This document shows positions 27,663 through 28,288 of a stretch of 64,000 nucleotides of DNA, piece after piece; the first letter of the stretch is position 1; each line of letters starts with the position of its first letter. Below the pieces are notes generated by a model. The model saw only the letters and a program-made list of their open reading frames with translations, was not told the origin of the DNA and made no database searches. The DNA is from Callorhinchus milii. Its lineage: Eukaryota. Position numbers and translations under genes: made by a program. The DNA is taken from positions 8,496,001 to 8,560,000 of the forward strand of contig NW_024704742.1 in assembly GCF_018977255.1 (NCBI RefSeq), given 5' to 3'.

Positions 27663-28288
27663 CTTCCAGATGTTTATAAACCTCTTCATACGCCATCACT
27701 TCATTCTCCATCACTTCAGCCACATCGTTAATCTGTTTCGCAATATCTGCCCTGGTTCCACGGTTGAGATTATGACCATCGTTTGCTCTGGAGATCAGAG
27801 ATGATATGAAAGGCAGCCTTGTCTGAGCTGCTGACCCGGCCTTGGATGTCACCGACACCTGTTTGTTCATTGTTTCAGCCACAGCAGCAAATACAGCCAA
27901 GTGTTCAGTGTCAGCTCCACCAGGAAATGTGGTTTCTGATTTCTCACCATAACGTTTCAAGATCCGAACTGCTCGTGAGAGTTTTGTGTAACACTCTGCC
28001 ATTTCTCTGCTGTCCTTTGCATATTGTTCCGTGAAATCATTAACCCTTTCCAGTCTGTATGTTTGGGTAACAATGTCCGTGTCACAAGCTGCAGTGTTGT
28101 CAGCCCCACCAGCCACACTCTGGCCAACTCCCACTCTCGTGCCACGTTTGTGAATCAAGTAAATGTCGTCTGCGATCTCTTGTAGGTCTCTGATGTAGCT
28201 GATCATCCACACTCTCCACACAGGGAACAAGATGACAAAATCCTTTACATCCTCCTTCCTCTGTTCAACCTCAGCTTTGAAAGATATC
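27663..28288 (-). CDS. APOL: APOL-like domain A exon (626 nt, hairpin-less), copy 1
   Basis: Acceptor aatatttacAG (28290-28289), phase 2. ISFKAEVEQRKEDVKDFVILFPVW..LQEIADDI..EQYAKDS..DIAKQINDVAEVMENE aligns with gene 1. Candidate donor AAG|GTACAG at 27662, phase 1. If unspliced, the frame runs on to 27295. Confidence 0.8.

Follow-up and report, generated by a model that had tools for sequence, protein, structure and literature searches.

A hairpin-less ApoL-like domain encoded upstream of a hairpin-bearing ApoL domain in a probable two-domain gene of the elephant shark

The window analysed here is a stretch of 64,000 nucleotides (nt) from the elephant shark Callorhinchus milii (NCBI RefSeq assembly GCF_018977255.1, contig NW_024704742.1, positions 8,496,001 to 8,560,000 of the forward strand); coordinates refer to this window unless another locus is named. 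It holds two closely similar genes on the minus strand, each composed of a short first exon, a micro-exon, a large exon A, a second micro-exon and a large exon B (Table 1). The product of 27663-28288 is called domain A and its counterpart in the second gene A′; the ApoL domains encoded further downstream are called B and B′. A canonical ApoL exon at 8645-10150 (+), called gene 1, scores 113 bits against the Pfam ApoL family (PF05461) and served as a reference. ApoL proteins are innate-immune membrane effectors that harm host cells when their activity goes unchecked, as happens in APOL1 kidney disease, and how they are kept harmless is still debated. The predicted protein has about 488 residues and two ApoL domains; the first, encoded by exon A, forms its N-terminal half and has no hydrophobic hairpin, and the second has one.

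The borders of exon A are exact, with an acceptor AG at 28290-28289 and a donor GT at 27662-27661 on the minus strand, and the frame between them is open over 208 full codons (27664-28287). Contigs of run X1 cover the exon at 27663-27882 and 28119-28290 with 0 mismatches. Against the Pfam profile, domain A alone scores 25.0 bits (E=1.6e-5), where the curated cut-off is 25.9 bits, and B (open reading frame (ORF) 24044-24809) scores 34.6 bits. Protein models that contain A pass the cut-off (P0002, 41.8 bits; P0034, 37.0 bits; P0035, 56.4 bits), their best stretch lying at the A/B border or within B. Judged by BLASTP against gene 1 (E=1e-11, with 35 gap positions) and by a profile search that matches hairpin-bearing ApoL-like proteins from E=1e-23, domain A is homologous to ApoL. 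The ApoL helices that flank the hairpin are kept (F/W...L.EIAD.I..H before it, RV..I.EQY after it), and the ApoL columns L35, I38, A39, I42, H46, R81, I85 and Y89 are invariant or nearly so across the A copies and eight canonical ApoLs. Domain A is 25-33% identical to any of the hairpin-bearing paralogs. Over residues 46-207 it is 37-42% identical to canonical ApoLs of the same cluster against 25% to B, and the idea that A is a recent internal deletion or a trimmed copy of B is rejected on this ground.

A direct splice from A to B would be out of frame, as A leaves one base and B adds one. The 25-nt micro-exon 2 takes two bases and gives two, which restores the frame between A (phase 1) and B (phase 2). 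The join is reflected in record 6 of run X1, a 526-nt contig of depth 19.8 and 0 mismatches, whose two pieces map to 27663-27882 and 24529-24808 and are separated by 26 letters; this gap fits a 25-nt micro-exon plus one base. Because the contig skips two introns at the predicted borders, it is taken as a processed transcript. Within exon B, the cover by X1 contigs is 24370-24556 and 24529-24808. Three automatic protein models show the same order. UniProt P0002 (329 amino acids (aa), 100% identical in A) reads MAEIPKPDTVSDTEDR-A-DTVSNIEV-B and is truncated, and RefSeq P0034 (443 aa, from the second window copy) and P0035 (485 aa, from a paralog) run as A-linker-B through to the stop; the linker of all three is DTVSN(I/T)E. 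An earlier reading of the sequence alone (the sequence-only reading) had treated A and B as two parts of one product, and the spliced contig and these models bear this out. The placement of A and B on one mRNA and in one reading frame is supported, on the basis of one contig of one run and automatic models, and a fused two-domain gene is very probable.

The two micro-exons are 82% identical when compared with their flanks, so the gene contains two copies of the unit of a micro-exon plus a large ApoL exon. At the place of the usual ApoL stop, the first large exon has a donor: gene 1 reads ...YKSL followed by the stop and A reads ...YKHLE/gt. No exon-1-like sequence was found between A and B, the two matches in the window both lying upstream of an A, and no ATG was found in micro-exon 2. 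The phases would allow exon 1 (phase 1) to be spliced in frame to micro-exon 2. We propose that two neighbouring ApoL genes of a tandem cluster may have fused: the last exon of the upstream gene would have gained a donor at its ApoL stop and would now be spliced to exon 2 of the downstream gene, which is 25 nt long. The resulting protein is probably intracellular, since no N-terminal hydrophobic segment resembling a signal peptide was seen.

Table 1. Exons of the two A-B genes in the window and segments of interest within exon A
Feature	Position	Strand	Description
Exon 1, coding part	30148..30169	-	ATG GCA GAG ATT CCT AAA CCA G = MAEIPKP + 1 base, then gt; back-translated start of P0002, 1 match, 0 mismatches
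Micro-exon 1	29083..29107	-	25 nt; DTVSDTEDR with split codons; borders cag/ and /gtacgt; matches P0002 residues 8-16
Exon A	27663..28288	-	626 nt; hairpin-less ApoL-like domain; incoming intron phase 2, outgoing phase 1
Hairpin stump	28087..28149	-	A residues 47-67, KRGTRVGVGQSVAGGADNTAA; 35-residue gap between R51 and V52 (bases 28135/28134)
Degenerate C-terminal hydrophobic segment	27778..27822	-	TRLPFISSLISRAND; A residues 156-170; counterpart, by alignment, of the hydrophobic segment in gene 1, B and canonical ApoLs
Micro-exon 2	25707..25731	-	25 nt; ag/ACACAGTCAGCAACATTGAGGTCAG/gt; DTVSNIEV plus split codons; present in P0002
Exon B	24041..24809	-	Second ApoL domain, 255 residues, with hairpin and C-terminal hydrophobic segment; stop TAG 24041-24043
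Exon 1′, coding part	60237..60258	-	MAEIFTP + 1 base; blastn 84.7% over 472 nt; LINE (long interspersed nuclear element) insertion between exon 1′ and the rest of the gene
Micro-exon 1′	56949..56973	-	Found by regular expression and blastn; unit w2 positions 1628-1652
Exon A′	55523..56148 (codons 55524-56147)	-	93% protein identity to A; same splice sites; within RefSeq model P0034
Micro-exon 2′	54357..54381	-	DTVSNTEV; matches P0034
Exon B′	52571..53333	-	Stop included; 77% identical to B; within P0034

Published work describes the hairpin as the inserting element of ApoL and reports that mutation of the hairpin loop abolishes the toxicity of APOL1 and APOL3 (PMC7891394). In a MAFFT alignment of A, A′, B, B′ and gene 1, A and A′ have a single 35-column gap relative to gene 1, between HKRGTR and VGVGQ. 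The same 35 columns are absent from all seven intact A copies of the genome when these are aligned with eight hairpin-bearing ApoL relatives (8 of the 11 sequences inspected; P0008, P0011 and P0015 were left out as long or truncated). Relative to B the shortfall of A is 42 residues, because B holds 7 extra residues there; the figure of 35 is thus valid against canonical ApoLs and not against the gene's own B. The sequence-only reading had described a clean, in-frame deletion of 35 residues in two copies that both stay open and almost identical. With gene 1 and canonical ApoLs as the reference, MAFFT, BLASTP and the seven-copy alignment agree on the deletion, and A and A′ are indeed open and 97.1% identical in DNA. 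The word "clean" describes the alignment and no observed mutation; since A is so distant from its hairpin-bearing paralogs, the event is judged to be old and untraceable at the DNA level.

Hydrophobicity was measured on the Kyte-Doolittle scale in 19-residue windows (KD19). What is left of the hairpin, VGVGQSVAGGADNTAACDTD, corresponds to its second arm with polar replacements, and the remnant VGVGQSVAGGADNTAACDT has a KD19 of 0.24; stump residues V52-A62 are invariant in the seven intact A copies. The C-terminal segment peaks at a KD19 of 0.43 in A, compared with 1.45 in gene 1 and 2.09 in B, in agreement with the earlier observation that this segment is more polar in A. The highest KD19 anywhere in A is 1.27, in the N-terminal helix, and no window reaches 1.6, so that a check for membrane-grade segments finds none. 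The peaks are 2.75, 2.29 and 2.09 in B, the first two being its hairpin, and 1.74, 1.72 and 1.45 in gene 1. By this measure A is without a segment hydrophobic enough to span a membrane. Domain A is probably unable to insert into a membrane by itself, and it should be soluble.

An AlphaFold2 model of A, made from a 15-row alignment, reached a mean predicted local distance difference test score (pLDDT) of 79.4 and a predicted template modelling score (pTM) of 0.74. It consists of four long helices (residues 2-47, 62-120, 127-170 and 176-207), with the hairpin stump at 47-67 as a floppy, low-confidence loop of pLDDT <50. The C-terminal helix is kept, as judged by conserved columns and by a pLDDT >90 for the modelled helix 176-207. 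A Foldseek search of the A model against the Protein Data Bank (PDB) gave 0 matches at E<=0.001 and returned only generic, mostly designed helical bundles (best TMq 0.58, 8gl3). The model of the full two-domain P0034 (11-row alignment; mean pLDDT 36.4, pTM 0.27) is too poor for domain packing to be judged from it. A prediction of the complex of A with B scored 0.00 in both runs, made without controls, and counts neither way.

The genome contains nine A-type copies, all within 8.35-8.66 Mb of contig C1. Seven are intact; L014 has stops and frameshifts and L015 has one frameshift. An acceptor ag/G and a donor G/gtacag are present in all eight A copies whose borders were correctly read (the L015 donor is not among them). 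Each of the seven B-type copies follows downstream of an A in the same orientation, at a distance of 2.5-5.7 kb, and five of them are intact, those of L012 and L014 being broken. The partner of the two remaining A copies is a third ApoL type: L010:1368-4300 (+) and L015:1375-4300 (+) each show an A exon, then a 25-nt micro-exon that resembles micro-exon 1 (the "first" type, 95% identity), then an ApoL exon. The product of this last exon has a degenerate hairpin and shares 32% identity with B; the exon is intact in L010, and that of L015 carries a frameshift. The downstream domain is thus also broken in both units with a broken A. The sole unit whose halves differ in state is L012 (C1:8352500-8361800), in which A is intact and B is broken by frameshifts and an in-frame TGA; RefSeq P0005, from this locus, reads A, a micro-exon and then unrelated sequence. 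No protein model with B and without A was listed, and both B matches (2/2) contain A.

A profile built from the seven intact A copies was compared with 1.84 billion representative proteins and gave 31 matches at E<=0.001. Four of these fall at E<1e-100 and all are A-containing proteins of C. milii; the next match is at 1e-23. Most of the 27 weaker matches align in two or three stretches. The full hairpin is present in each of the 11 non-A matches (of 27) that were inspected. A scan of nine longer ApoL relatives from other sources gave one ApoL match each, which is split into fragments in P0024 and P0030, and a second domain is not evident.

Substitution rates were estimated from paralogs only, using the intact copies of A (7 of 9) and B (5 of 7). 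Maximum-likelihood (ML) values of omega, the ratio of nonsynonymous (dN) to synonymous (dS) divergence, were obtained with the GY+F3X4 model in iqtree, and a likelihood ratio test (LRT) against omega = 1 was made with kappa scanned. For B, the ML omega was 2.06 (LRT 19.6, p=1e-5), and pairwise NG86 omega was 0.77-2.50 with a median of 1.60 (10 pairs). The B hairpin is the most variable part among the five intact paralogs (B, B′, L009, L011 and L013), with a pooled dN of 0.337, dS of 0.130 and omega of 2.59, compared with a dN of about 0.06 in the helices on either side, and some copies have charged residues (D, K, E, R) in it. It would be unusual for a membrane-inserting hairpin to be under diversifying selection; gene conversion, or relaxed constraint on swaps between hydrophobic residues, are alternatives.

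The reading that we prefer is as follows. Of the transmembrane helix-loop-helix, 35 residues are gone from domain A, whose C-terminal hydrophobic segment has turned polar; the long ApoL helices and the C-terminal amphipathic helix are kept. Alone, A would be soluble, neither inserting into a membrane nor forming a pore. Domain B, which keeps three hydrophobic elements, would be the membrane-active part, with a hairpin that diversifies among paralogs. As a soluble module, A may act in cis on B through helix-helix contacts of the kind described for APOL1 and for APOL1 with APOL3, and may hold B soluble or restrained until a trigger arrives. The preference for a module that restrains B in cis comes from the published role of the hairpin, from the published binding of ApoL helices in cis and in trans, and from the architecture found here. 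The analysis shows the missing hairpin, the exon structure, the joint transcript, the order of A before an effector domain throughout the family and the want of membrane-grade hydrophobicity; we infer the solubility of A, its contact with B and any regulatory effect. Whether A has any selected function of its own is an even call, and it is rather doubtful that this function is the restraint of B in cis. Taken as a whole, the explanation of A as a soluble module acting in cis on B is put forward tentatively, at somewhat under even odds. The sequence-only reading had suggested a soluble pseudo-effector that could serve as a cap, sensor or decoy; the KD19 profile without a membrane-spanning segment and the shared mRNA with B agree with a soluble domain linked to B, the role itself being hypothetical, and the purifying selection that would have spoken for it was not detected.

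Several findings weigh against this explanation. Transcript support for the window copy consists of one contig, its 26 bridging letters unseen, of one run whose RNA label, like those of the other runs, is a guess, and stretches of the gene that have no contig cover carry no information; two automatic models, P0004 and P0006, read through the A donor. In the protein library searched, no hairpin-less ApoL was found outside C. milii, and no long-term conservation is seen. Purifying selection on A was not detected, in a test that is weak with seven paralogs exchanging sequence: the ML omega of A was 1.17 (LRT against 1 = 0.73, p=0.39), and NG86 pairwise omega was 0.56-1.44 with a median of 0.92 over 21 pairs (pooled, 0.83). 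Helix 1 of A has a regional omega of 0.51, and the other regions have values of 0.86-1.04. Of 210 columns 78 vary, and these show no clustering, the longest invariant run being 12 (p=0.23; runs test, p=0.46). In favour of retention, when unconstrained substitution was simulated on the A tree, only 13 of 4000 replicates kept all seven copies free of stops, in a rough simulation that ignores indels and the choice of intact copies. The open frame of A is selected, yet its position upstream of B suffices as the cause: as a stop in A would also abolish B, selection on the frame needs no function of A.

The comparison with introns cuts both ways, the divergence between subgroups speaking for retention of A and that within the young subgroup against it. 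Intron divergence (K) was taken from local colinear blastn blocks; the 300-nt flanks are non-homologous between subgroups, which makes the global K of 0.6-1.7 meaningless. Between subgroups, intron K is 0.10-0.25 (introns differing by 10-25% and exon A by 4-12%) and exon A has a dS of 0.04-0.12 and a dN of 0.04-0.11. Within the group L009/L011/L012, the order is reversed, with an intron K of 0.02-0.03 (introns differing by 2-3%, A and B exons by 4-9%) and an exon A dS of 0.04-0.08 and dN of 0.05-0.07. From one subgroup to another, the sequence around A is hardly homologous beyond the exon itself (w1 positions 2268-2945), and between the two window copies high identity extends into the flanking intron. 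These patterns point to exon-scale gene conversion among paralogs, which may itself explain the exon-limited similarity and which blurs the rate estimates. The proposed check of dN/dS gives an omega of about 1 among seven recombining paralogs, by which neutral evolution is neither excluded nor clearly established. As to stops and frameshifts, 2/9 A copies are broken and 7/9 intact, and the partner domain is broken in both broken units.

On these data the explanation nearly as likely as the preferred one is that A is a passenger: the upstream half would have lost its hairpin after the fusion and would now drift almost neutrally, staying open for the sake of B and acting at most as a soluble N-terminal leader. 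An omega indistinguishable from 1, the even spread of substitutions, the predicted disorder of the stump, the score of A alone slightly below the Pfam cut-off, the frame selection that B downstream accounts for, and the broken partner in both units with a broken A would all suit a passenger. No unit, however, is without A, although its deletion would cost nothing, given that a junction of exon 1 with micro-exon 2 would keep the frame. All seven intact copies retain the ApoL motifs and the pattern of four helices, and the indels among these copies are only in-frame. Between subgroups, moreover, the dN of A is below intron divergence, and a mean omega near 1 can hide constrained sites and diversifying sites beside a partner at omega 2, which seven recombining paralogs cannot resolve.

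It is improbable, though compatible with part of the data, that A acts as a sensor or decoy, a non-lytic ApoL look-alike that is bound by anti-ApoL factors of pathogens and either soaks up such a factor or releases B. In APOL1, the C-terminal amphipathic helix is the target of a pathogen antagonist, being bound by SRA of Trypanosoma rhodesiense (PMC7891394), and A keeps this helix (176-207). A family that expands and exchanges sequence fast, with B under positive selection, would fit host-pathogen conflict, and an omega of A near 1, with a dN above intron divergence in the youngest subgroup, would suit some diversifying selection. Against this, no antagonist is known in cartilaginous fish and no site-specific positive selection has been demonstrated in A; its C-terminal helix is no more variable than the rest (omega 1.04), and the excess divergence in the young subgroup is also present at synonymous sites, which points to gene conversion.

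Least probable is that A and B are two genes, joined only in a minor read-through (conjoined) transcript, with A ending in an intron-read tail and B having its own promoter: the two read-through models (both from UniProt), the frame open past the donor in the window copy, contigs of X3 and X4 beyond the donor, and the homology of the micro-exon before B to the second exon of a stand-alone gene would all suit it, but there is no exon-1-like ATG exon between A and B, micro-exon 2 has no ATG, the donor G/gtacag is kept in 8/8 correctly read copies, no B-only protein model is listed, and the read-through tail has no Pfam family and may be open by chance. The tail runs at 27298-27663 (-), where the frame is open for 122 codons past the A donor, and the same open tail, ending ...ENDSV, is found in the paralog of P0006; the flank of the two copies differs by 2%, so its openness may be accidental. 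As a candidate domain the tail was rejected, with no Pfam match. The X3 and X4 contigs lie at 27271-27486 and carry 5-6 mismatches, which marks them as coming from paralogs.

Other features of the window were noted in passing. In gene 1, the middle helix and the C-terminal hydrophobic segment are separated by an inserted stretch of about 250 residues, made up of low-complexity repeats of the AAGKAAGE type. Reverse-transcriptase-like LINE ORFs lie at 58090-59554 (-), 39270-39809 (+), 40606-41100 (-) and 11736-12242 (+). The first of these separates exon 1′ from micro-exon 1′ as part of intron 1 in the second A-B gene, and may explain why P0034 starts at an internal Met. Short interspersed repeats are found at 23534-24067, just downstream of exon B, and at 28607-28873, in the intron upstream of exon A; at both, contig depth is very high in each of the four runs and joints from repeat to repeat are numerous.

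A two-domain ApoL with a hairpin-less first domain is a real new architectural variant of a known family. The C. milii proteins encoded by these genes are annotated in databases as "uncharacterized" only, and a literature search that did not extend to subscription journals found no publication on shark ApoLs or on tandem ApoL domains; a listed elephant-shark paper concerns interferon-stimulated genes, and none of the listed papers on APOL gene families and positive selection in teleosts deals, by title and opening of the abstract, with the domain architecture of ApoL. The case documents the probable fusion of two neighbours in a tandem immune cluster, in which a stop codon was lost and a donor was gained; it also documents this ApoL form in a cartilaginous fish together with an unusually fast-changing transmembrane hairpin in B. 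A natural pair of a hairpin-less and an intact ApoL also offers a ready-made comparison (B alone, A-B, and A supplied in trans) for the restraint of a hairpin by helices. If A is a passenger, the gene is a clear example of a reading frame kept open solely for a downstream domain. A built-in safety catch, in which the pseudo-effector A masks B in the same chain until a pathogen or cellular cue appears and the B hairpin is in an arms race, is unlikely. If true, it would provide a natural pair of pseudo-domain and active domain in a pore-forming immune family, like pseudokinase and kinase, and an independent natural experiment on the restraint of ApoL toxicity, the central problem of APOL1 kidney disease.

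Of the known systems, APOL1 and APOL3 (PF05461) are the closest. The shark domains share with them the homologous helices that flank the hairpin and the C-terminal amphipathic helix, and B and gene 1 share in addition the helix-loop-helix hairpin and the C-terminal hydrophobic segment. Both also belong to fast-evolving tandem multigene clusters, as illustrated by the omega of shark B; the rapid evolution of APOLs and their general structure are treated in PMC13177371. Unlike APOL1 and APOL3, the shark protein would have two ApoL domains in one polypeptide, the first without the 35-residue hairpin, and the hairpin of shark B is rich in Ile, Leu and Val, 7 residues longer and furnished with charged residues, whereas the canonical ApoL hairpin is rich in Gly, Ser and Ala. 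In PMC7891394, APOL1 is described as making cis-interactions between helix pairs (HC1/LZ1 with HC2/LZ2) and trans-interactions with APOL3. This provides a precedent for ApoL helices that bind each other and change activity (PMC7891394), and A keeps the corresponding long helices. The difference is that the partner proposed in the shark would be a full additional ApoL domain, a degenerate one, of the same polypeptide. According to the same source, the ApoL hairpin is comparable to the hydrophobic hairpin of helices found in colicins, diphtheria toxin and BCL2 proteins (PMC7891394). Shark A differs from the colicin and Bcl-2 pore-forming domains in having no such hairpin, and its model has no PDB match at E<=0.001. 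More distant parallels are found outside pore-forming domains of this kind. In JAK kinases, the pseudokinase JH2 beside the kinase JH1 is a degenerate tandem duplicate that regulates its active twin, and gasdermins are autoinhibited pore-formers. The folds are unrelated, and autoinhibition is established by experiment in those proteins and is a hypothesis in the shark, so the parallel is an analogy of mechanism and no family assignment; what the JAK kinases, the gasdermins and the shark protein would have in common is a domain without the executing element beside an active domain in one chain.

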